Positions 24,538 through 49,063 of a DNA stretch of 64,000 nt are shown here, one piece after another. Numbering within the stretch: the stretch's first letter is position 1; every line of letters begins with the position of its first letter. Position numbers and translations under genes: made by a program. This DNA is from an uncultured Candidatus Saccharibacteria bacterium (GTDB taxonomy: Bacteria > Patescibacteriota > Dojkabacteria > SC72), in assembly GCA_964403155.1 (NCBI GenBank), contig CAYOEG010000002.1, forward strand, positions 8,147 to 72,146, written 5' to 3'. The notes under the pieces were generated by a model, which was not told where the DNA came from, did no database searches, and saw only the letters and a program-made list of their open reading frames with translations.

Positions 24538-25329
24538 ATGAGACAACATCCAATACCACAAAATATATTAGATGTAGAGTTCAAACTCTTTACAAAGTTT
24601 ACACTTAAAGAATTCGCATACCTTGCCATTGGTTTAGGAATCGGAGGAGTATTGGTATACCTAATGGTAGGACACACAATTCCAGTAATAGTTGGGATCC
24701 CTGGCCTCATACTCTCTGCAGGTGCAGGAATATTCCTGGGATTAGTACCAATAAATGATCAAGATGCAGATGTATTCATAAAAAACTATGTAAATGCAAT
24801 AACTACACCAACACAAAGAGTCTGGTTAAGTAAAGAGATGCAGGAAGACAGAAACAAGCCTTCTGTAAAACCAGGTGCAGACGGGAAATTAGTACAAAAA
24901 AGCTTTAAAGATAAAGTGACCGAGATAATTGGTGGAAATAAGCAAATAGTAGTAGAAGAGACAGCTCCAACGATACCTGCAAATAATACCCCCGTATCAT
25001 TATCTGAGTTAACAATATCAGACAGTAACAGAAACAAATATGAATTTAGTATCCAGAACTTAGAAAAATTACCTGGGAATATCAATATCTGGCTCTATAC
25101 CGGAGAAATGACCCCATCCCCAAATGTCATAACCTATATGAAGGATGAGAATGGTAAAATACTCTACGCAAACAGAACAGGGAACAGTGGCTATTTCCTA
25201 ACTAACAAGATATGGCCAAAGGGGATATATCAATTAGAGTTTGTGCATCCTCAGTTCAGATTCCCAAAGGTAAAGATCATAATCGAGGAAGAAAGTCATA
25301 AATTACCGATTAAAATAAAGAACATTTAA
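24538..25329 (+). CDS. VirB3/PrgI-like two-TM membrane protein with a C-terminal extracytoplasmic domain (T4SS-like module)
   Basis: Two adjacent TM helices (FAYLAIGLGIGGVLVYLMV / IVGIPGLILSAGAGIFLGLV) at the N-terminus; immediately precedes and is translationally coupled to the VirB4-like genes. Confidence 0.45.
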   Translation: MRQHPIPQNILDVEFKLFTKFTLKEFAYLAIGLGIGGVLVYLMVGHTIPVIVGIPGLILSAGAGIFLGLVPINDQDADVFIKNYVNAITTPTQRVWLSKEMQEDRNKPSVKPGADGKLVQKSFKDKVTEIIGGNKQIVVEETAPTIPANNTPVSLSELTISDSNRNKYEFSIQNLEKLPGNINIWLYTGEMTPSPNVITYMKDENGKILYANRTGNSGYFLTNKIWPKGIYQLEFVHPQFRFPKVKIIIEEESHKLPIKIKNI

Positions 25330-25330
25330 A

Positions 25331-25981
25331 GTGGATCAAAATACAAGGGCAAGAGCTATTGCCTCAACACAAGATGCATTAGAAGTTAGAGATATCCGAG
25401 AGGATCTTGTTGTAACTAAAAGCGGAAGTGTGGCAATAGTAATTCAAACGTCCGCCATTAACTTTGACCTTCTAGCCGAGTATGAACAGGATAACAAAAT
25501 ATATGCCTTTGCAGGACTTCTAAATTCACTCAATTTCCCCATTCAAATCTTGATCCGAACAAAGCGAATAGATATCACTTCATATGTTGACTATCTTAAA
25601 TCACAAAACGAAAGAGAGATGAGCGAAGGGTTAAGAAAACAATTAGAAATCTACACCCTATTTATACAAAACCTCATCGTACAGAATGATGTCTTAGACA
25701 AAAATTTCTTCATAGTAGTACCTTACAACCCTGGGCTTACTTTAAACGATGTAGGTTTCCTAAAAAAGAACAGTAAAAAAACAAAAGAAGAGGAAGAAAA
25801 ATATCAGAACATGGAGATAGACCAATTAGTGGAGAAAGGTAAAATATACCTCTATCCTAAGAGAGATCATATACTCAAACAACTCTCAAGAATGGGATTA
25901 TTTGGTCATCAATTAAACAATACTGAATTACTTTCTGAATTCTATACAATATATAACCCCGAGGAAGAAGAAAATGCCTGA
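25331..25981 (+). CDS. VirB4 N-terminal-domain-like protein (separate ORF, translationally coupled)
   Basis: GTG start 1 nt after the upstream stop. LVVTKSGSVAIVIQTSAINFDLLAEYEQDNKIYAFAGLLNSLNFPIQILIRTKRIDI matches the N-terminal segment of Gram-positive-type VirB4 (PrgJ/TcpF/Orf16 family). Overlaps the next ORF by ATGCCTGA. Confidence 0.45.
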   Translation: MDQNTRARAIASTQDALEVRDIREDLVVTKSGSVAIVIQTSAINFDLLAEYEQDNKIYAFAGLLNSLNFPIQILIRTKRIDITSYVDYLKSQNEREMSEGLRKQLEIYTLFIQNLIVQNDVLDKNFFIVVPYNPGLTLNDVGFLKKNSKKTKEEEEKYQNMEIDQLVEKGKIYLYPKRDHILKQLSRMGLFGHQLNNTELLSEFYTIYNPEEEENA

Positions 25982-28403
25982 AGAACTAAACAACTACAAC
26001 CGAACACTTGATAGCAAAATCTCGCAAGAGCTTAAATCTCAGACTGAGAAACTACAGTCCGTCGGAGAGAAATATCAAACATTCAGACAAGAACTAAAGA
26101 AAGAGATGGAGAATGGCAAAGCGAAAGAGGAAAAAGATAAATTCAATGACCCCCTGAAAACAGATGAAGAACCAAAACCAAAGAAGAATCCAATTTTGAA
26201 GCTCCTAGATAAGCTAGCTGAAAAAATAAATGGAAAAAAATCTCTTGAAGAAACAACTACTTCGGGAAACAAGATTGAAGATGATGATATAACAATGCTG
26301 GATAAAAATATGTCCATCAAAGATATCATTGCACCACTGGATATGGAACTCGACTTTAACGACATGCAGATGGGGGACTATTTCTTCAGAGTATTTAAAG
26401 TCTCTGGTTACCCTCGTATCGTTGGACCAAATTGGTTATCACCAATTATAAATTTTGAGCATTCCTTACGTATTAGTACCTTTTACTACCCAGTTGAATC
26501 TAAAGTCATTCTCGAAAAACTTAAGCGAAAAATCGGAGAGATGGAAGCCACACTCTACTCTCAAATAGAGGATCGAAAAGTTGTAGATCCTACACTTAAA
26601 GTTGCGCTCTCTGATGCACAACAGTTGCAAGACTCAATTGCAGAAGGTTCAGAGAAATACTTCCACTACGGAATGTACATCACAATATATGCACCTAACA
26701 AGGATCTATTAGAGAAATATTCTAGAAATGTAACTTCGACCCTAGCTGCGATGAATGTGGTTGCCATACCAGCAATTTTGCAACAAAATGAAGGATTTCT
26801 GAGTACACAACCTTTGGGATTAGACAAACTATACTTCACTAGGAACATGGATACCACCTCCCTTGCCACAACCTTCCCATTCGTGACTTCAGAGTTAACA
26901 ATGGAGAAGGGAATTATGTATGGCGTAAACATGCATAACAAAAGCCTGGTCATATTTGATAGATTCCAGTTAGAGAATGCAAACACCGTAGTATTTGCAA
27001 AAGCAGGTGCAGGTAAAAGCTATTTTGTAAAACTAGAAATTCTTAGGAGTCTAATGCTGGGAACCGAGATCATCATTATAGACCCAGAAAGGGAATATGA
27101 CGAACTTTCCAAAGCAGTAAACGGACTTTACATCTCATTCTCACAGGACAAAGGAAGCAAGATGAATCCATTTGAACTCTCAGGAATTAAAGACGAGGGT
27201 GATGACGAGCTAAGAATGAAACTACTTGCATTACATGGTTTCTTCAAAATACTTTTCGGGGGACTTACTAATGTTGAAGAATCCATTTTAGACAAAGCAT
27301 TAATACTCACTTACAGAGAGAAAGGTATTACCTTTGACCCTGCAACACAGACGAAACAGCCTCCTCTACTTGAAGATATGTACAAAGTACTTAAGGGTAT
27401 GGCCGAGAATGAAGCTCATGATTTAGCCAGAAGAATGGAGAAATATATAATCGGTAGTGGTGCAGGAATATTCAACGAAGCAAGTAATTTTGAAATTAAT
27501 AATCCATTTACAGTATTCAGCATCAGAGACTTACAAGAAGAACTAAAACCTCTCGCTATGTACCTAATGCTTGATTTCATATGGACAAAAATTCGAAAAG
27601 ATCAGAAGAGGAGAATCCTTGTTGTAGATGAAGCTTGGTATATGATGCAAAGTTTGGACTCCGCAAATTTCATGTATTCAATAGCTAAACGTGCAAGAAA
27701 GTATTATCTCGGCTTAACAACAATTACTCAGGATGTCGCAGATTTCCTAAATAATGATATGGGGAAGGCGATTATATCTAACTCTTCAATGCAGGTGCTT
27801 ATGAAACAAAGCCCCTCTGCTGTAGATAAGCTACAAGCAGTATTTAATCTGTCTGATGGAGAGAAGAATTTCTTACTAAGTTGCGATAAAGGACAAGGAC
27901 TGTTCTTTGCAGGGTCAAACCATGTAGGCATACAAGTTATATCTAGCCAAGCAGAACACGAGCTTATAACCACAGATCCTAAAGAACTAGAGCAACGCCG
28001 TGCAAGGTCTGGCATGACTGAGACAAGAACCATAGAAGAATTAGCCCAGATATTTGAACCTCCAGCAGAGCAACAACCTATGAGAGATGGGAACTCCTTG
28101 GAAAGGCAACAACAGGTAATACGGGGAGCAATATACAAACGAAGAGATGATCAGGTACAGATTGAAAAAGAAAGAGAACAGTATCAAAAAGAATTAGAAG
28201 AAAGATTAAGACAACAGGAGCTTGAACTTAACCCAGAAAAGAGAATATCCCAACAAACTTTTCTTGATAGTTTAAAAGAGAATACTGTTTCTGGGCAAGT
28301 TATAAAATCAAGGGAAGATATACAAAAGGGTCGAACACATATAACTCCACAAGGCCCAGTTTCAAGCTATACAAATAATGGGACAGGCAACAACCAACAA
28401 TAA
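25974..28403 (+). CDS. VirB4/TraC/TrbE-family T4SS ATPase
   Basis: Walker A AKAGAGKSYFV, Walker B RILVVDEAWYM, conserved N-domain segment YFFRVFKVSGYPRIVGPNWLSPI; a KE-rich low-complexity insert of about 110 aa at the N-terminus; 809 aa. Confidence 0.8.
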   Translation: MPEELNNYNRTLDSKISQELKSQTEKLQSVGEKYQTFRQELKKEMENGKAKEEKDKFNDPLKTDEEPKPKKNPILKLLDKLAEKINGKKSLEETTTSGNKIEDDDITMLDKNMSIKDIIAPLDMELDFNDMQMGDYFFRVFKVSGYPRIVGPNWLSPIINFEHSLRISTFYYPVESKVILEKLKRKIGEMEATLYSQIEDRKVVDPTLKVALSDAQQLQDSIAEGSEKYFHYGMYITIYAPNKDLLEKYSRNVTSTLAAMNVVAIPAILQQNEGFLSTQPLGLDKLYFTRNMDTTSLATTFPFVTSELTMEKGIMYGVNMHNKSLVIFDRFQLENANTVVFAKAGAGKSYFVKLEILRSLMLGTEIIIIDPEREYDELSKAVNGLYISFSQDKGSKMNPFELSGIKDEGDDELRMKLLALHGFFKILFGGLTNVEESILDKALILTYREKGITFDPATQTKQPPLLEDMYKVLKGMAENEAHDLARRMEKYIIGSGAGIFNEASNFEINNPFTVFSIRDLQEELKPLAMYLMLDFIWTKIRKDQKRRILVVDEAWYMMQSLDSANFMYSIAKRARKYYLGLTTITQDVADFLNNDMGKAIISNSSMQVLMKQSPSAVDKLQAVFNLSDGEKNFLLSCDKGQGLFFAGSNHVGIQVISSQAEHELITTDPKELEQRRARSGMTETRTIEELAQIFEPPAEQQPMRDGNSLERQQQVIRGAIYKRRDDQVQIEKEREQYQKELEERLRQQELELNPEKRISQQTFLDSLKENTVSGQVIKSREDIQKGRTHITPQGPVSSYTNNGTGNNQQ

Positions 28404-28616
28404 CAATTTAAATCTATTAGAAGAATCAAACTACTTGGTTACAAAAGCAGTTTCAACTTCTAGTATCCCTCAACAAAGAGTCTCTTCTGATTTAGAAATG
28501 TTAGAGAAAGCCGAGAAGAAAAGTCTGTATAGAGCTAACATAGCAAAAGGTAAAAAAGACCCACAGGTATATATTGCACTTAGTGCATTAAGACTTTCTA
28601 ATCCATTTAAAGGATA

Positions 28617-29795
28617 CTAACTCAATGGACCCTGATCTTGTGGAAGATAATGCTTTAAATTATCCGCCGTTATAATTATTGGAAGCGTTGCTCCCTCTAC
28701 AACATCTCTAGCAACAGCTCTAACCATACCTGCGATATTACGTTCCAACTGCCTAATACCAGCGTCAAAACCTACAGGACGAATAATCATTGGCCAGATC
28801 GTATCATCAATTCTAATAAGTTCTTCTGAAAGATTAAGCCCCTTAAGAACCCTTGGAAATATATATCTCTTCGCAATAACCGTCTTCTCCTCATCTGTAT
28901 AACTAGTAAATCTAATCACCTCCACCCTATCCAATAAAGCCGCAGAAAGACCCCCAAGATTATTTGCTGTACATATGAAGAAAATATTAGAGAGATCAAC
29001 TGGGAAATCTAAATAATGATCCCGGAATGCTCTGTTTTGTTCAGGATCAAGGATTTCTAATAATGCTGCCATAACATCATTAAGTAATCCCGCATTACCA
29101 CTTGCTTTTTCAATTTCATCAAGAAGAACAACTGGGTTCATAGTCCCACTTCTCATCAATGCCTTAATAATTTGCCCAGGCTCCGGATCCACAGCATAAC
29201 GAGGAGTACCACGCAAAGTTCTTACGTCCCCTATTGCACCAAGGGAGATTCTTACAAATTTTCTTCCCATGGCTTGTGCAATAGATTTGGCAATGGAAGT
29301 CTTACCCACACCCTGAAGTCCTACAAAAAGAAATACTGGTGATTTAGAGAAATTATTTTGTGAGGGTATTATCATTTCCGGTCTTTCCGATAAAGAACCA
29401 ACCGAAGAAGGCATAGCAACATATTGATTGAGATTCTGCCTACTCTCGAGCTGCATCGCTGCAAGATAGTCAAGAATAGCGTTCTTAATACCATCCATAC
29501 CATAATGAGTAGAATCCATTATCTCCTTAGCATTCTTAATATCAAGATTGTCCTTGGATAACACTCCCCAAGGAATAGAAACTACGTAATTTACATATTT
29601 GCTTACATTCTCATACTCTGAGCTATACACTCCCTTCTTTGCTATCCTTTCTAATCTCTCAATACTCGAAAGAACTTCATTTTTGAGATCAATCGGGGCA
29701 TTAGAATTTACAAGCTTGTTCTTAAGTAACAAGATGTCTGAGACATTATCATCCATAGTAATATCTTGTGGTATGGGCGTATTAATATAATCCAT
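28617..29795 (-). CDS. Lon-like AAA+ ATPase module lacking the N-terminal substrate domain and the C-terminal protease domain
   Basis: Near-canonical Lon AAA+ sequence: LFVGLQGVGKTSIAKSIAQAMGRKFVRISLG, LLDEIEKAS, LEILDPEQNRAFRDHYLDFPVDLS, TANNLGGLSAALLDRVEVIRFTSYTDEEK. It ends at ITADNLKHYLPQDQ, exactly where Lon proteins begin the protease domain. No Ser-Lys protease domain adjacent. Confidence 0.75.
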   Translation of the reverse strand: MDYINTPIPQDITMDDNVSDILLLKNKLVNSNAPIDLKNEVLSSIERLERIAKKGVYSSEYENVSKYVNYVVSIPWGVLSKDNLDIKNAKEIMDSTHYGMDGIKNAILDYLAAMQLESRQNLNQYVAMPSSVGSLSERPEMIIPSQNNFSKSPVFLFVGLQGVGKTSIAKSIAQAMGRKFVRISLGAIGDVRTLRGTPRYAVDPEPGQIIKALMRSGTMNPVVLLDEIEKASGNAGLLNDVMAALLEILDPEQNRAFRDHYLDFPVDLSNIFFICTANNLGGLSAALLDRVEVIRFTSYTDEEKTVIAKRYIFPRVLKGLNLSEELIRIDDTIWPMIIRPVGFDAGIRQLERNIAGMVRAVARDVVEGATLPIIITADNLKHYLPQDQGPLS

Positions 29796-29900: not shown

Positions 29901-30662
29901 ATGAAAAAATCATTCCCAATATTCCTATCTTTGTTAACTATCTTGTTACTACCATTTAGAGTTTTTGCTGCAGATTTAACTACAATCCAAGAAACTGTAT
30001 CTGATTACCTTCCGTATATTTTAATAGGCGGTGCTGTGATTCTTTTAATAAGTATCATTGGTATCTTGTTAGGAAAGAAGAAAAACAAAAATACAACGTC
30101 AGAACCGATCGAGATTGCACAACCTGCAACACCACAACCTATTGCAACAGAGGAAGTAAAAACTCCTGTGATGGAAGAAACTCCTGAAGTTACTCCTGCT
30201 GTCAATATGGATACGATCTCAAATAATTTGTACTCACCAACACCAGAAGAATTACCAGAGAGACCCCCTATTCAAGAGACCCTTGGAGCTACACCACAAC
30301 CCGTACCAGAAACTAGTGATCAAAGTTCCGATCTTCAAGCAATTTTACAACAAGAATCTTCATCCGAACCTATGACACCTGTGACAGATCAGGCCTTTAA
30401 TTCTGTACCAACTCCTGAAGTAAAACAATCTCCTTTGCCAGAATCTTCCACAATATCTCCTATGGATAACACCTTGTCTACTATGCCAGAGCAATCTCCA
30501 GTTCCACCTATCGATACTACTACAAGTACTACTCCTGATTTACAACAGTTTGTGAATAATCAAGTTGCAGAAGTTCCACCAATGGCGGCTCCAGTAGCAG
30601 AAACACCTGCTTCAACAGATACAACAACACCAGCTCCAACGGGAACTCCTAGTATTGTTTAA
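29901..30662 (+). CDS. membrane protein with signal peptide, TM helix and Pro/Thr/Glu-rich disordered tail
   Basis: MKKSFPIFLSLLTILLLPFRVFAA signal; TM ILIGGAVILLISIIGILLG; then about 190 aa of PT/PE-rich low complexity. Confidence 0.5.
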   Translation: MKKSFPIFLSLLTILLLPFRVFAADLTTIQETVSDYLPYILIGGAVILLISIIGILLGKKKNKNTTSEPIEIAQPATPQPIATEEVKTPVMEETPEVTPAVNMDTISNNLYSPTPEELPERPPIQETLGATPQPVPETSDQSSDLQAILQQESSSEPMTPVTDQAFNSVPTPEVKQSPLPESSTISPMDNTLSTMPEQSPVPPIDTTTSTTPDLQQFVNNQVAEVPPMAAPVAETPASTDTTTPAPTGTPSIV

Positions 30663-31950: not shown

Positions 31951-32526
31951 CTACATTAATCCATTCTTAAAGTTTTTCCAGTATTCACTACCCTTCACAG
32001 TCATCGTGCCAACATACTTATTACCCAAACCATCAGTACCATACTTCCTATCACATTCCTGATCCAAAAGCTCAAAAATTATCTGGGCAATCTTCATCCC
32101 TGGATATATCTTGATTGGCAAAGGGGAAAGATTAATCAAATGCAATGTTAATCTTAGAGAATTACCTGGGTCAAGAAAACCAGCGGTAACATGAATCGCA
32201 AGCCCTAATCTTCCAAGAGAACTTTTACCCTCTAACCTTGCAATGTGTTTTCCATCAACACCTGTAATTTCTTTAACATTTGCTAAAACAAATTCGCCTG
32301 GGTTTAAGGTATAACCTTCTTCTTCATCTACTTCAACATTTTGCATAAGGTTATCGATCGGTTTTTTAACATCAATAACCCTATCCTTCTCTTTACTGAA
32401 AATTAGAAAATGACTATCTAAGTGTAAATCATATGATGCAGGTTGAAGATATTTTTCATCAAAAGGTTCTATCTTTATCTCACCTGTCTTTAATTTCTCT
32501 CGTATCGTTTTATCTGCTAGTATCAT
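31951..32526 (-). CDS. dcd: dCTP deaminase
   Basis: MILADKTIREKL N-terminus; dUTPase-like fold motif GFLDPGNSLRLTLHLIN; 191 aa. Confidence 0.8.
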   Translation of the reverse strand: MILADKTIREKLKTGEIKIEPFDEKYLQPASYDLHLDSHFLIFSKEKDRVIDVKKPIDNLMQNVEVDEEEGYTLNPGEFVLANVKEITGVDGKHIARLEGKSSLGRLGLAIHVTAGFLDPGNSLRLTLHLINLSPLPIKIYPGMKIAQIIFELLDQECDRKYGTDGLGNKYVGTMTVKGSEYWKNFKNGLM

Positions 32527-33746
32527 ATTCCTGGAATTGGGTAATTTTTTGCGAATTCTTTTATTTCAGCTTTTATTTTTTCCAAATTATCATCATTAGG
32601 ATTTTTTAATGCCCTATCAATAAACTGAGCTACTGTTTCCATTTCATCTTCTTTCATTCCTCTAGTAGTTAATGCTGGGGTACCTATTCTAATACCTGAT
32701 GGATCCCATGGTTTTCTTTGATCGTTCGGGATTGCATTTTTATTTACTGATATATTTGCTTTTTCAAGAAGATCCGAAGCTTCACTACCAGAGAGATTGA
32801 CACTTTTAACTGTATCTACAAGGAAAAGATGATTATCTGTCCCACCAGATATCACCGAATATCCTAGCTCTCTCATTCCGTTTGATAGTGTTTTTGCATT
32901 TAAAACTATCTGCTTTGAATATTCTTTGAATTCAGGTTTCAATGCCTCTCCCAATGCGACTGCTATCCCTGCGATTGTATTATTGTGTGGGCCTCCTTGA
33001 AGTCCTGGGAATACTGCTTTGTCTATCCTCTCTCCTAGTTCCTCTTTGCACATTACGATAGCTCCTCGTGGCCCTCGTAGTGTCTTATGGGTAGTTGTGG
33101 TCACCACGTCGGCAATACCAACAGGGTTAGGATATTCTCCCGTAGCAACTAGCCCTGCAACATGAGAGATATCAGCTGCAAAATACGCCCCTACTTCATC
33201 TGCTATTTTTCTAAATTCATTCCAATCTATGATTCTAGAATATGCCGAGAACCCTGCCCATATTAATTTAGGTTTATGTTCTCGTGCTAGTTTTCTAACT
33301 TCTTCATAATCTATGTATCCATCCTCTTTAACATCATAGTTAACCGAATTGTAGTACTTCCCAGAAAAAGAAATCTTGTACCCATGGGTTAGATGTCCAC
33401 CAGCATCTAATGCCATTCCCATAACAGTATCTCCTGGATTTACTAGTGCCATGTATACGGCATGATTTGCAGGAGAACCTGAATATGGTTGAACATTTAC
33501 ATGTTCTGCTCCAAACAGCTCTTTTGCTCTAGCTATAGCTTCGTTCTCTATTTCATCAATATATTGATTTCCACAGTAGTAACGCTTCCCTGGGTATCCC
33601 TCAGAATATTTATTCGTCAGAATAGAACCAATAGATTCTAATACAGATTCACTAACATAGTTCTCAGATGCTATTAATTCAATTCCTTCTATTTGTCGTT
33701 TCTTTTCTAGATCAAGTATGGACGAGATTTTACTATCTTCTATCAT
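32523..33746 (-). CDS. glyA: serine hydroxymethyltransferase
   Basis: LIASENYVS, YSEGYPGKRYYCG, TTTTHKTLRGPRGA motifs. Confidence 0.95.
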   Translation of the reverse strand: MIEDSKISSILDLEKKRQIEGIELIASENYVSESVLESIGSILTNKYSEGYPGKRYYCGNQYIDEIENEAIARAKELFGAEHVNVQPYSGSPANHAVYMALVNPGDTVMGMALDAGGHLTHGYKISFSGKYYNSVNYDVKEDGYIDYEEVRKLAREHKPKLIWAGFSAYSRIIDWNEFRKIADEVGAYFAADISHVAGLVATGEYPNPVGIADVVTTTTHKTLRGPRGAIVMCKEELGERIDKAVFPGLQGGPHNNTIAGIAVALGEALKPEFKEYSKQIVLNAKTLSNGMRELGYSVISGGTDNHLFLVDTVKSVNLSGSEASDLLEKANISVNKNAIPNDQRKPWDPSGIRIGTPALTTRGMKEDEMETVAQFIDRALKNPNDDNLEKIKAEIKEFAKNYPIPGI

Positions 33747-38357: not shown

Positions 38358-39980
38358 TTACATCATCCCACCCATTCCCATATCAGGTGCCATAGGTGCT
38401 TTATCCTTCTCTTCTGGTAAATCTGCGACTACTGCCTCCGTAGTAATCAACATAGTACCTACAGAAGCTGCATTAACCAACGCTAACCTAGTAACCTTAA
38501 CAGGATCTATAATACCAGTCTTAATCATATCCACATATTCACCAGTCTTTGCATTATACCCAGTATTATCATGACAATTAGCAGCCACCACAGCACCATC
38601 TTCTCCAGCATTCTCTGCAATCTGTTTCAATGGTTCACTTAATACAGTCTTGAGTATTTCTATACCCATCTGCTCATCAACATCATCTAGCTTAATATCA
38701 TTTAAAACAGCTTTAGCATTATGAAGTGCTAAACCACCACCAACAACAATTCCTTCCTCTATCGCAGCACGAGTAGCATGGATAGCATCTTCAATCCTCG
38801 CTTTCTTCTCCTTAGCTTCAGACTCGGAAGCAGCACCTACCATGATCACTGCCACACCACCATTAAGTTTAGCTAGTCTTTCCTGTAATTTCTCTCTATC
38901 ATAGTCAGAAGTTGTCTTTTCAATCTGTGCTTTGATCTCCTTTGCTCTCTCTTTAACATCAGATGCTAAGCCCTTCCCTTCCACAATGATTGTACTCTCT
39001 TTAGAAATCACAACCTTCTTTGCAGAACCTAGGTCTGCAAGTTCTACAGCTTCTAAAGTATTACCTAATTCCTCAGATACAAACTTTGCACCTGTTAATA
39101 CTGCGATATCTTTAAGCATCTCCTTCTTTCTATCACCAAACCCTGGAGCCTTAACTGCTACAACATCCAATGTACCTCTTAATTTATTAACTACTAAAGT
39201 TGCTAATGCTTGATTCTCAATATCATCAGCAATAATGACCAATGGTCTATCTGCAGCACTTAACACTTTCTCTGCAATAGCTTGAATATCTTGAAGATTT
39301 GAAAGCTTCTTATCTGTTACAAAGATATATGGATTCTCCATACTTGCTTCCAATGTCTCTCTATCTGTAACAAAATATGCACTTACATAACCATTATCAA
39401 ATTCCATACCCTCAGTATATTCAACCTCATCTGCAAAACCCTTTGCTTCCTCAACTGTTATTACTCCATCTTTACCCACCTTATCAAATACACCACCAAT
39501 CATATCCCCCAATTCCTTGTCATTATTTGTAGAGATCGTTGCAACCTGAGAAATCTCTTCCTTCTTAGAAATCTTTTTTGCAGATTTTCTTAATTCTTTT
39601 TCAACTAATTCCACACCCTTATCTATACCCCTCTTAATTGCAATTGGATTTGCACCTGCAGATACATTTCTAAAACCTGCATTTGCTATAGCTTGTGCCA
39701 ATACAGCAACTGTTGTGGTTCCATCACCTGCGAGATCATTTACTCTGTTAGATGCTTCTTTGATCATTTCAACTCCAACATTTTTAAATGGATCCTTGTC
39801 AGAAATCTCTTTTGCAACTGTTACACCATCTTTGGTAATAACTTGGGAACCAAATGATTTTGCAATTGCGACATTTCTTCCTTTGGGGCCTAATGTAGTT
39901 TTAACAACATTAGAGATAGTATCTACACCTGATTTTAAAGCTTTTCTTGCTTCTTCATTGTAAATTATTCCTTTTGACAT
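38358..39980 (-). CDS. groL: chaperonin GroEL (Hsp60)
   Basis: AAVEEGIVVGGG, DGTTTVAVLAQAI, C-terminal GGMGGMM tail; 540 aa. Confidence 0.97.
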   Translation of the reverse strand: MSKGIIYNEEARKALKSGVDTISNVVKTTLGPKGRNVAIAKSFGSQVITKDGVTVAKEISDKDPFKNVGVEMIKEASNRVNDLAGDGTTTVAVLAQAIANAGFRNVSAGANPIAIKRGIDKGVELVEKELRKSAKKISKKEEISQVATISTNNDKELGDMIGGVFDKVGKDGVITVEEAKGFADEVEYTEGMEFDNGYVSAYFVTDRETLEASMENPYIFVTDKKLSNLQDIQAIAEKVLSAADRPLVIIADDIENQALATLVVNKLRGTLDVVAVKAPGFGDRKKEMLKDIAVLTGAKFVSEELGNTLEAVELADLGSAKKVVISKESTIIVEGKGLASDVKERAKEIKAQIEKTTSDYDREKLQERLAKLNGGVAVIMVGAASESEAKEKKARIEDAIHATRAAIEEGIVVGGGLALHNAKAVLNDIKLDDVDEQMGIEILKTVLSEPLKQIAENAGEDGAVVAANCHDNTGYNAKTGEYVDMIKTGIIDPVKVTRLALVNAASVGTMLITTEAVVADLPEEKDKAPMAPDMGMGGMM

Positions 39981-45867: not shown

Positions 45868-47769
45868 TTATTCTACAACCTCACCTTCTTGTGCTTTTTC
45901 TTCATCTTTTTTCTTTGATGAATCATCTACTTTTGGTTCTTCCTTAGGAGCTTCTTTTGCAGCTTTTTCATACATCTTTTTACCGACTTCTTGCATTGCA
46001 TTCATAAGCTCTTCAGTCTTTTTTTCTACCTCTACCTGATCAAAATCATCTTTCTCGATTAATTTCTTCAATTCATCGGATTTCTCAGTTAAATTCTTTT
46101 TATCCCCTTCCTCAATCTTGTCTCCATTTTCCTTAATAAGCTTCTCAACACTGAAGCAAAGAGTATCTGCTTCATTTTTCTTTTCAACTCTCTCCTTTTT
46201 CTTCTTGTCTTCCTCAGCATGTTTTGCCGCTTCATCTACCATCTTCTCAATTTCTTCATCTTTCAACCCTGTAGATGCAGTTATTGTAATCTTCTGTTCT
46301 TTCTTTGTAGCCATATCCAATGCTTTTACATTTAGAATACCGTTGGCATCGATAGAGAACATGACTTCAATCTGAGGAACTCCTCTTGGTGCAGCTGGGA
46401 TACCATCAAGTATGAATCTACCCAATGTTTTGTTATCTGCGGCCATTTCTCTTTCTCCTTGAAGAATATGGATTTCAACAGCAGGTTGATTATCAGCCGC
46501 AGTCGAGAAGACCTGTTTCTTCTCTACAGGGATTGTTGTGTTTCTTTCGATAAGCTTGGTCATAACTCCACCCAATGTCTCCAATCCTAATGATAATGGT
46601 GTGACATCCAACAAGGTGATATCTTTAACATCACCACCTAATACACCACCTTGGATTGCAGCACCAACACCTACAACCTCATCAGGGTTTACACCTTTGT
46701 TTGGTTCTTTGCCGAATATCTCAACAACCTTCTTCATTACAGCTGGCATTCTTGTCATACCACCCACCAGTAATACCTGATCAACCTCATTAGCTTTCAA
46801 ACCAGCATCTTTAAGAGCCTTCTTACATGGCTCCTCTGTAGAATCAATCAAGTCAGCTACTAACTTCTCTAATTGAGCTCTAGTTAATGTTTCCTTCAAA
46901 TGCTTTGGTCCACTTGAAGTTGCAGTAATGTATGGGATATTGATCTCGGTCTGTTCAGAACTAGATAGTTCAACCTTTGCTTTTTCTGCGAATTCCTTCA
47001 ATCTCTGAAGTGCGGTTCTATCATCCCTAAGATCCATGCCTTCTTTCTTCTTAAATTCATCTGCTAGGTAATCAATTATTCTCTGGTCAAAGTCATCACC
47101 ACCTAGGTGTGTATTACCATTTGTAGAAAGCACTTCAAATACTCCATCTCCGATTTCAAGAATGGATACATCAAATGTACCCCCACCTAAGTCAAAGACT
47201 ACGACTTTTTCATCTTTTCCCTTGTCCACACCATATGCAAGTGCAGCAGCAGTTGGTTCGTTTACAATTCTCTTAACATCCAAGCCTGCAATCTTACCTG
47301 CATCTTTTGTAGCTTGTCTTTGAGAGTCATCGAAATATGCTGGGACTGTGATGACTGCTTCTGTAACTTTCTCTCCAAGGAATGCTTCTGCATCTTCCTT
47401 CATCTTTGCAAGAATCTTTGCAGAGATTTCTTGTGGTGTATACCACTTATCTCTCATCTTAACCTCAACTCCGCCATTGGATGATTTTCTCATCTCAAAT
47501 GGAAGAAGTTTGATATCTTTCTGTACCTCTTGATCATCCCATGATCTACCTATTAACCTCTTTACAGAGTAGATTGTTCCCTCTGGATTTGTAACTGCTT
47601 GATTCTTAGCTAATACACCAACAAGTGTTTCGCCTTTATCATCTGCAGCTACAACAGATGGTATTAATCTTCCACCCTGTGCACTTGGTATTACATTAGG
47701 TTTTCCACCTTCCATGTAAGCCATTACGGAGTTTGTAGTTCCTAGGTCTATTCCTATTATTTTTGACAT
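45868..47769 (-). CDS. dnaK: chaperone DnaK (Hsp70)
   Basis: [25 protein letters not shown], canonical Hsp70 throughout; 633 aa. Confidence 0.97.
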
Positions 47770-48337: not shown

Positions 48338-49063
48338 TTATCTCCATCCTGACATGGATGACTCTAATGTGGTTTTAACCTCTTTCAATGCAGGGATTAC
48401 TTTCGAATAATCCATTCGTTTTGATCCTAATATTCCAACATACCCTGTCTCTCTTCCCCAAAATGGGATTTTGGTAAATGCCATTGCACAGTCTGCAAGT
48501 GTTCCAACTCCAGACTCGCCACCAATTAAAAGTGAGACTCCTGAGCCTGAGTATTTTTCCGTTATGTTTTTTAGAAACACATCATCTTCCAATATGTTCA
48601 CAATATTTCTTATTTTTTCTATTGATTGGAATTCTTCAAAGGTTAGTAATGTGGAAAGGCCAAAATATCTTATATCTTCATCTAAGATCAGGAAAACTAC
48701 AGAATCGGTTTCTTTAGACAAAATATGAAGCATTGATTTGATAACTATATCTTTTGAGAATCTATCTCTAAATATTCCTTGTCTAATTTCTATACACATA
48801 AGCGGATTAACGCTGTTTCTACCTAGTAAATCACTAACATACAATCTTAATGCTTGATCTGTTGGTAGTCTTCCTGAAGAGGAATGTGTCTTTTCTAGTA
48901 ATCCTAAATTCATTAGCTTGACCATTTCGTTTCGAATTGTTGCGGAGCTTACACCTAAATCATATTTTTCTACCAAAGATAGTGATCCCACTTCTTCAGC
49001 GTCTCCCATGAACTCTTTAATTATGGCCATTAGTATGGCTTTTTGTCTTTCCGTTATATCCAC
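48338..49063 (-). CDS. hrcA: heat-inducible transcription repressor HrcA (short form)
   Basis: N-terminal winged helix VSSATIRNEMVKLMNLGLLEKTHSSSGRLPT; 241 aa; first gene of the hrcA-grpE-dnaK operon. Confidence 0.8.
   Translation of the reverse strand: MDITERQKAILMAIIKEFMGDAEEVGSLSLVEKYDLGVSSATIRNEMVKLMNLGLLEKTHSSSGRLPTDQALRLYVSDLLGRNSVNPLMCIEIRQGIFRDRFSKDIVIKSMLHILSKETDSVVFLILDEDIRYFGLSTLLTFEEFQSIEKIRNIVNILEDDVFLKNITEKYSGSGVSLLIGGESGVGTLADCAMAFTKIPFWGRETGYVGILGSKRMDYSKVIPALKEVKTTLESSMSGWR

Follow-up and report, generated by a model that had tools for sequence, protein, structure and literature searches.

Lon-AAA, a conserved LonA paralog without protease or N-terminal domain, in Dojkabacteria and related lineages of the candidate phyla radiation

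The 64-kb window analysed here (the whole stretch of DNA, 64,000 nucleotides of contig CAYOEG010000002.1) encodes a 392-aa protein that retains the ATPase portion of the Lon protease and has lost both the proteolytic domain and the N-terminal substrate-binding domain. This protein, here called Lon-AAA, is almost certainly a conserved, functional LonA paralog that has no protease. It belongs to a large and conserved family of the Dojkabacteria, WWE3 and Microgenomates branches of the candidate phyla radiation (CPR). The family is apparently undescribed so far: no description of it was found in the full-text literature, a search that left most subscription-journal papers outside its range. The best overall explanation, and a moderately favoured one, is that Lon-AAA is a functional LonA-derived family member that acts as a non-degrading, ATP-driven protein remodeller.

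Domain content, ATP site and pore loops of Lon-AAA

The Lon-AAA open reading frame (ORF) runs from an ATG to a stop codon (Table 1), and only three parts are present in its product: a three-helix bundle, an AAA+ alpha/beta domain and a Lon-type lid. The protein matches the Pfam families AAA (E-value: 1.1e-19) and Lon_lid (E-value: 1.2e-07; 31.7 bits, above the cutoff of 27). It covers positions 249-567 of the 795 positions of TIGR00763 (endopeptidase La; E-value: 8e-95), and its score of 318.9 bits lies below the equivalog cutoff of 608 bits because both ends of the model, amounting to half of it, are missing from the protein. The top matches among solved structures are all LonA AAA+ modules (E-values of about 1e-66), and residues 14-384 align with E. 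coli Lon 235-584 (PDB 6n2i). An AlphaFold2 model has a mean pLDDT (predicted local distance difference test score) of 82, with disorder confined to the termini and to one insert. When this model was compared with the PDB using Foldseek, all of the top 50 matches were LonA or LONP1, with a TM-score to 6n2i of 0.87 (target-normalised). A preliminary description, made from the sequence of the window, had proposed a cleanly bounded, stand-alone Lon AAA+ module, and the Pfam, TIGR00763 and structure matches bear this out. The motifs that it quoted are present as well, apart from EVLDPEQN, a misquotation of EILDPEQN.

No match to the S16 protease domain (Pfam Lon_C PF05362; Ser-Lys dyad and PKDGPSAG motif) or to the N-terminal LON substrate-binding domain (PF02190) was found in the 392-aa protein, and the long coiled-coil part of the HI(CC) region is also absent. 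The C-terminus lies 7 residues beyond the start of the LonA linker to the protease. Translation of the three minus-strand frames 3' of the stop codon and 5' of the start codon gave no remnants of a protease or N-domain, and scans of the 64-kb window with hidden Markov models (HMMs) of the Lon protease domain and N-domain found nothing. The window is free of Ns. Both neighbouring genes lie on the opposite strand, the nearer end of the convergent VirB4-like gene (809 aa) being about 210 bp from the Lon-AAA stop. The ORFs and the three-frame translation thus agree with the earlier statement that the neighbours are oppositely oriented and that neither missing domain is encoded beside the gene. An assembly break or an overlooked in-frame protease, either of which would have undermined the stand-alone module, was looked for here, and neither was found.

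Residues 16-123 are the counterpart of the three-helix part at the C-terminal end of the LonA HI(CC) region (approximately residues 244-341 of E. coli Lon). Helices are predicted in this bundle at residues 16-29, 35-53, 60-73, 86-96 and 101-123 (pLDDT 80-94). The bundle is followed by an insert that separates it from the AAA+ domain and that, by alignment, neither full-length Lons nor the other short clades possess; pLDDT falls below 50 in this insert at residues 125-134 and 137-150.

The ATP site has the full set of LonA-type elements. The Walker A motif, GLQGVGKT, keeps the GxxGxGKT pattern, with a family-typical Leu-Gln in place of the canonical Pro-Pro; it begins with GLQG, GLVG or GLAG in the short family, versus GPPG in full-length Lons. 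The Walker B motif is VVLLDEI. In 22 divergent family members the Walker A residues G159, G162, G164, K165 and T166, the Walker B residues D226 and E227, sensor-1 N278, the trans-acting arginine finger R290 and sensor-2 R348 are invariant. Between K165 and D226 lie 60 residues, a spacing of the LonA type; Walker A-to-B spacing is typically 60 residues in LonA and 82 in LonBA (PMC9569914). Because Walker A and B, sensor-1, the arginine finger and sensor-2 are all invariant, the ATPase of Lon-AAA should work.

The pore loops have changed. Pore-loop 1 of the window protein (RGTPRYAVDPEPG) is equal in length to that of LonA (RGHRRTYIGAMPG) and has new acidic residues, Asp203 and Glu205. Its tyrosine, Tyr200, stands one position early, and Ala201-Val202 occupy the sites of E. 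coli Y398-I399. Every full-length Lon compared (58/58) has the sequence GHR[RK]T[YF][IVL]G, and the canonical tyrosine position (E. coli Y398) is aromatic in all 58. The equivalent position in the 94 short proteins is aromatic in 25 and histidine in 20, and is otherwise Ser, Glu, Asn, Arg or Leu. Glu205 is found in 93/94 short proteins, where it replaces the Met, Leu or Ile of full-length Lons, and Asp or Glu at position 203 replaces Gly in 80/94. Pore-loop 1 of the family is acidic, with x-P-[DE]-A-E-P-G in place of TY[IV]GAMPG. Pore-loop 2 (EKASGNAGLLND) exceeds that of LonA by 3 residues and has lost the conserved RGDP motif. Lon-AAA has neither of the features that mark LonA pore loops, namely the aromatic-hydrophobic pair Y398-I399 in the first loop and RGDP in the second.

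Family extent and relation to full-length Lon

A database search gave more than 120 clusters with 62-100% identity to Lon-AAA, all 378-425 aa in length; those with a name are from Candidatus Dojkabacteria / WS6. An exhaustive search of representatives added further short proteins (43-60% identity) that likewise end at the AAA/protease junction. When one genome of each species was scanned, at least 589 Lon-AAA loci were obtained. The best 80 of these at least 589 loci come from Dojkabacteria, WWE3, Gottesman-, Levy-, Woese-, Roizman- and Shapirobacteria and 'Microgenomates', and include one complete genome (CP011214.1). In 80/80 loci examined the ORF is 347-472 aa long and stops 0-7 residues past the AAA/protease junction. 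Some family members carry Gln/Pro-rich N-terminal tails of up to about 300 aa with QPQQPQVQPVQFGQQ repeats (at the N-termini of P0156, P0272, P0122, P0146 and P0152), and P0145 and P0147 have Ser/Asn-rich low-complexity C-terminal tails. No folded domain was detected in the low-complexity tails of these longer members, and the tails give no functional hint.

The Lon-AAA gene is under strong purifying selection that matches that of its housekeeping neighbours. In comparison with a relative of 90% identity (L090), its ratio of nonsynonymous to synonymous substitution (dN/dS) is 0.043 (glyA: 0.050; SufS-like gene: 0.040); dS in this comparison is near saturation (approximately 1.7), so that the ratios are approximate. 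That the gene is a decaying lon remnant, or a product of faulty assembly or gene calling, can for practical purposes be dismissed. Nothing beyond the missing domains themselves speaks for it, and it is contradicted by the low dN/dS, by the invariant catalytic residues, by the recurrence of the same architecture in 80/80 independent genomes and by a window with no Ns and no frameshifted remnants. The earlier opinion that this is not simple decay is supported by the same dN/dS value and by the presence of the family in at least 589 species-level genomes. The altered pore loops, the size and breadth of the family and its ancestral place in the genome had escaped that description.

A neighbour-joining tree of the region common to both groups (a simple distance tree, midpoint-rooted) places the 94 short proteins in one clade with 0 of the 58 full-length Lons inside it. 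Short and full-length proteins differ by a mean distance of 0.59, as against 0.44 within each group. Tandem Lon-like proteins with two or three AAA modules were considered as relatives of Lon-AAA and rejected, since their motifs are canonical and they ranked high through the summing of module scores. Among these, P0123, P0124, P0128, P0131 and P0139 have three Walker A motifs in tandem Lon-type AAA+ modules, and P0125, P0126, P0130, P0132, P0135 and P0137 have two Walker A motifs and an S16 motif. The tandem proteins are 900-1700 aa in length and have varied pore loops; many have N-termini resembling signal peptides or transmembrane segments, and some have no DGPSAG. They resemble Lon-AAA in having Lon-type modules that in some cases have no detectable S16 motif, but with canonical GPPG and mostly GHxxT[YW] loops they make up a different family.

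Full-length Lon does occur in some of the same lineages. In 1.35 Mb of CPR DNA a Lon N-domain HMM gave one match, a canonical LonA at locus L068 that has the N-domain, GPPGVGKT, GHRRTYVG and RGDP and looks complete, although the contig ends within it. The short paralog is on the same contig, 8 kb away, and both forms can therefore coexist. The 1.35 Mb around 88 family loci gave no S16 match to an HMM made from 40 Lon protease domains. A query with the protease domain of a CPR LonA (P0263) gave at least 120 matches, mostly fragments; the S16 proteins among the matches listed are, by name, from the Microgenomates group, Woesebacteria, Pacebacteria and Collierbacteria, with none named Dojkabacteria. 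The corresponding N-domain query gave 2 matches only, from a word-index search that is insensitive for so divergent a domain.

This co-occurrence bears on the main rival to an independent remodeller, namely that Lon-AAA is a modulatory subunit. The short protein would join mixed rings with full-length LonA, or cap LonA, and would change substrate choice or throttle degradation by supplying an ATPase site that comes with no protease or N-domain and with an altered pore loop. In keeping with this are the two genes on the L068 contig, the S16 Lons whose names place them in Woesebacteria, Collierbacteria and the Microgenomates group (where the short family is found too), and the retention of the Lon-type fold and the inter-subunit arginine finger. 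However, co-occurrence was directly seen at that one locus only, where the genes are neither adjacent nor co-oriented, and short and full-length AAA modules are so distant from each other that their interfaces may have diverged. A modulatory role is considered unlikely; a split Lon, an accessory of the secretion system discussed below and a pseudogene are progressively less likely still.

A split Lon, in which the short protein is the unfoldase half and feeds an S16 or other peptidase encoded elsewhere in the genome, had been among the possibilities raised in the preliminary description. It would account for a clean cut exactly at the AAA/protease junction with the ATPase intact, and the peptidase scans of the source genome covered only the 64-kb window. 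Nevertheless, that window contains no peptidase gene of any kind, and the S16 HMM was negative both there and around the 88 family loci. The family does not consistently keep the translocating tyrosine, its pore loops being acidic instead of aromatic-hydrophobic. At L068 the short gene occurs together with a full LonA, and no partner gene is kept at +1 or -1 across clades. These results weaken the split-Lon explanation to the point of being quite improbable.

Gene order, known systems and the proposed role

The window is core chromosome (dnaJ, alaS, lepA, groEL, dnaK-grpE-hrcA, rpsL/G, ftsK and others). Neighbouring genes were clustered over 78 species-level loci, 13 from the Dojkabacteria clade and 65 from other clades. 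In the other clades the order, all on the same strand, is nusA - infB - DHH - rpsO - pnp - [Lon-AAA] - (udg) - rnj - ftsK - rodZ-like. The pnp gene (PNPase) is at -1 on the same strand in 30 of these 65 loci and no more than four genes away in 42, and rnj (RNase J) is downstream on the same strand in 43; the median intergenic gaps to pnp and rnj are 53 and 27 bp, respectively. In two deep loci of the Dojkabacteria clade (L020 and L021) udg is still directly downstream of Lon-AAA. The ancestral site of the family is the end of the nusA-infB-rpsO-pnp cluster, between pnp and rnj. There is no partner gene common to all clades at +1 or -1.

In the Dojkabacteria clade the gene is preceded by folD-glyA-thyX-dcd and then by a SufS-like or other gene, and it faces a convergent operon composed of a small ORF and VirB4-like, TraC-like and PrgI-like genes, which resembles a type IV secretion system (T4SS). 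An accessory ATPase of this T4SS-like apparatus was another role suggested earlier for Lon-AAA. The operon is immediately downstream in the window, a VirB4-like gene is adjacent in 13/13 loci of the clade, and the last ORF of the operon even overlaps the Lon-AAA stop codon by 4 bp. The convergent orientation, however, means that the genes are not co-transcribed, and VirB4 adjacency is found in 0/65 loci of other clades, where the gene lies between pnp and rnj. Because the whole region (groEL ... folD-glyA-thyX-dcd) is syntenic in the Dojkabacteria clade, adjacency there carries little information. Lon-AAA itself has no match to the T4SS ATPase families VirB4, VirB11 and VirD4. In the lineage of the window the gene has moved beside the T4SS-like operon; this is synteny, not partnership, and an accessory role in secretion is very improbable.

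Lon-AAA has the fold of the LonA proteases (MEROPS S16A; approximately 35-45% identity) and shares with them the 60-residue Walker spacing, Walker A and B, sensor-1, arginine finger, sensor-2 and lid. It differs in having no N-domain and no S16 domain, GLQG rather than GPPG, acidic DAEPG for GAMPG, an unconserved pore-loop-1 tyrosine and a pore-loop 2 that has no RGDP and is 3 residues longer, and in forming a separate clade. Because the S16 domain, the N-domain and the pore-loop tyrosine are wanting and the model score is below its cutoff, Lon-AAA is not a Lon protease and should not be annotated as 'ATP-dependent Lon protease'. Current database labels for these proteins are 'AAA family ATPase' or, wrongly, 'ATP-dependent Lon protease'. 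The other Lon subfamilies fit no better. LonB, LonBA and LonC all include a protease and are defined further by, respectively, a transmembrane insert in the AAA+ module, an 82-residue spacing and a degenerate ATPase, whereas Lon-AAA has no insert between the Walker motifs, a 60-residue spacing, an intact ATPase and no protease. At the level of the AAA+ superfamily, the features of the HCLR clade (Walker A and B, sensor-1, trans-acting arginine finger and sensor-2 lid) are all present.

All Lons are described as carrying both ATPase and protease domains (PMC9569914), and in reviews and in the division of Lon into subfamilies A, B, C and BA the fused architecture is taken as defining. LonC and Lon-like proteases with a degenerate or missing ATPase are, like Lon-AAA, natural Lon relatives that have given up one activity. 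They are its mirror image, however: the LonC type keeps the protease and has a lost or inactive ATPase, and Lon-AAA keeps the ATPase and has lost the protease. An example of a protease-keeping relative is, in the words of its title, 'A Lon-like protease with no ATP-powered unfolding activity' (PMC3391209). Natural variants that drop the ATPase are thus known; a conserved clade that drops the protease was not found in the literature searched. The closest counterpart in extent is a laboratory fragment, E. coli Lon(235-584) (PDB 6n2i), whose boundaries are nearly those of Lon-AAA and which binds ADP and packs in crystals as an open-ring hexamer (PMC6722904).

Among HCLR-clade AAA+ chaperones, ClpB/Hsp104, and ClpX when it acts without ClpP, offer an analogy as ring ATPases that remodel proteins without degrading them. 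ClpB and ClpX, unlike Lon-AAA, keep aromatic GYVG-type pore loops and their own N-domains, M-domains or adaptor sites, and the similarity of Lon-AAA to them is at the general AAA level only (E-values: 1e-5 to 1e-11). The helical region and AAA module of LonA are structurally akin to those of ClpB (Rotanova et al., PMC6722904). Lon-like proteins of anti-phage defence, such as BrxL of BREX, were also considered and rejected: PADLOC gave only generic AAA-level matches, such as DolB (E-value: 1.4e-11, over the P-loop region), and the context is one of housekeeping genes.

The course proposed for the origin and action of Lon-AAA is as follows. A LonA-type gene lost its N-terminal substrate-binding domain and its C-terminal S16 protease and kept the bundle, the AAA+ domain and the lid. 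The product would assemble as a ring, probably a hexamer like Lon, and hydrolyse ATP; an oligomeric ring ATPase is suggested by the invariance of the trans-acting arginine finger. Substrates would no longer be threaded into a degradation chamber, and clients would instead be remodelled or held. Remodelling seems likelier than threading because there is no protease and no N-domain and because the pore-loop aromatics are relaxed. The acidic pore would possibly favour basic clients, and gene order hints, faintly, that these may belong to the RNA-turnover or translation machinery. That Lon-AAA acts alone as a non-proteolytic remodeller is plausible and is put forward tentatively.

Several points weigh against this proposal. 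An aromatic residue is found at or next to the canonical pore position in 32/94 family members, including the window protein (Tyr200), and residual translocation of polypeptides is therefore possible. The stability of LonA hexamers comes largely from the protease and N-terminal regions (PMC8244335), and ring formation without these regions is assumed here. Expression, ATPase activity, oligomeric state and clients of Lon-AAA are all predicted. The pnp/rnj gene order could have been inherited as synteny and have no functional meaning, and it is not kept in the Dojkabacteria clade to which the window belongs.

A bolder version of the remodeller proposal would make the family a fourth functional class of Lon, a non-proteolytic, acidic-pore 'Lon chaperone' that is universal in Microgenomates, WWE3 and Dojkabacteria and dedicated to remodelling basic clients of RNA decay or the ribosome. 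This version is doubtful, as are the candidate clients that go with it (PNPase, RNase J, and ribosomal or RNA-binding proteins). If it were true, bacteria with minimal genomes would gain an ATP-driven remodelling factor built on a protease scaffold and encoded beside RNA-decay genes.

The family amounts to a natural experiment, a Lon motor without a degradation chamber and with non-aromatic pore loops. As such it bears on the protease-independent chaperone activity of Lon and on how essential the pore-loop aromatic residue is, and it makes a widespread, strongly conserved and unnamed addition to the proteostasis and RNA-turnover repertoire of CPR bacteria, which is very small. Loss of domains has precedents among AAA+ families, and the function of Lon-AAA is inferred; the architecture and the change in the pore loops are nonetheless somewhat surprising for Lon specialists.

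Other features of the window and of related loci

Coordinates of Lon-AAA and of the other features are collected in Table 1.

Table 1. Features of the Lon-AAA gene, its surroundings in the window and the zinc-ribbon genes of WWE3-type loci
Feature	Residues	Position	Strand	Basis
Complete Lon-AAA gene (392-aa LonA paralog without protease or N-domain)		28617..29795	minus	ORF; Pfam, NCBIfam and PDB matches
Helical bundle	16-123	29427..29750	minus	Alignment to 6n2i residues 4-101 and 3m6a residues 8-102
Insert, Dojkabacteria-clade-specific, predicted disordered	124-150	29346..29426	minus	Alignment, pLDDT
Walker A GLQGVGKT (Lys165)	159-166	29298..29321	minus	Family alignment
Pore-loop 1 RGTPRYAVDPEPG	195-207	29175..29213	minus	Column counts, alignment to E. 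coli Lon
Walker B VVLLDEI (Asp226 and Glu227 invariant)	222-228	29112..29132	minus	Family alignment
Pore-loop 2 region EKASGNAGLLND	229-240	29076..29111	minus	Alignment
Sensor-1 Asn278 and trans-acting arginine finger Arg290	276-290	28926..28970	minus	Aligned to E. coli Lon N473, R484
Lon-type lid (alpha-helical small subdomain), including sensor-2 Arg348	298-385	28641..28904	minus	Pfam Lon_lid
T4SS-like operon, convergent with Lon-AAA gene		24538..28403	plus	Pfam matches
PrgI-like gene		24538-25329	plus	T4SS-like operon
TraC-like gene		25331-25981	plus	T4SS-like operon
VirB4-like ATPase gene (809 aa)		25974-28403	plus	T4SS-like operon
Conserved 80-aa ORF, last of T4SS-like operon		28378..28620	plus	Identity to L001, L002 and L004 ORFs
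groEL		38358-39980	minus	
dnaK		45868-47769	minus	
hrcA		48338-49063	minus	
Zinc-ribbon protein gene, WWE3-type locus L026		1921-2898		
Zinc-ribbon protein gene, WWE3-type locus L029		8932-9966		
Zinc-ribbon protein gene, WWE3-type locus L030		6902-7864		
Zinc-ribbon protein gene, WWE3-type locus L038		9094-10011		
Zinc-ribbon protein gene, WWE3-type locus L039		481-1455		

The 80-aa ORF that closes the T4SS-like operon overlaps the end of the VirB4-like gene by 26 bp and the Lon-AAA stop codon, convergently, by 4 bp. It shows 49-56% identity to its equivalents in L001, L002 and L004, its C-terminal NPF[KR]GY is invariant and its dN/dS is 0.025. It has no Pfam or PADLOC match and probably encodes a small, so far unannotated part of the T4SS-like operon of CPR bacteria.

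On the other side of Lon-AAA, between it and the SufS-like gene, the opposite strand encodes a protein of 253 aa (29901-30662, plus) that has a signal peptide or a transmembrane segment. This protein has a Pro/Thr/Glu-rich low-complexity region and no family matches. It is 74% identical to its counterpart in L090 and, with a dN/dS of 0.17, changes more rapidly than its neighbours; at this site related genomes have another gene or none. Further along, glyA and dcd abut in the window (31951-33746), where L001, L004 and L090 have a 531-aa thyX (Thy1) between them. A tblastn search did not find thyX anywhere in the 64 kb, and the gene has been either lost or relocated in this genome.

A scan for promoters and terminators gave nothing above chance. 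The operator known as CIRCE (controlling inverted repeat of chaperone expression; TTAGCACTC-N9-GAGTGCTAA) is absent, at up to 3 mismatches, from the whole window, including the regions 5' of groEL and of hrcA-grpE-dnaK. As groEL and dnaK have none either, its absence upstream of Lon-AAA carries no information on heat-shock control of that gene. The HrcA operator of this lineage may differ from the canonical CIRCE.

Many TPA records of metagenome-assembled genomes that carry Lon-AAA (L040, L044, L046, L047, L051, L064, L066, L068 and others) bear titles such as 'uncultured Gammaproteobacteria', 'Pseudomonadales' or 'Candidatus Saccharibacteria'. Such taxonomic labels are probably wrong, given the Microgenomates or Dojkabacteria gene order around Lon-AAA.

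In WWE3-type loci a zinc-ribbon protein of about 320 aa (N-terminal CPxC...FCxxCG), likely transmembrane, is encoded directly upstream of Lon-AAA. The gap between the two genes is -8 to 15 bp, with an overlap in 4/5 of these loci, which suggests that they are translationally coupled in the WWE3 lineage only.

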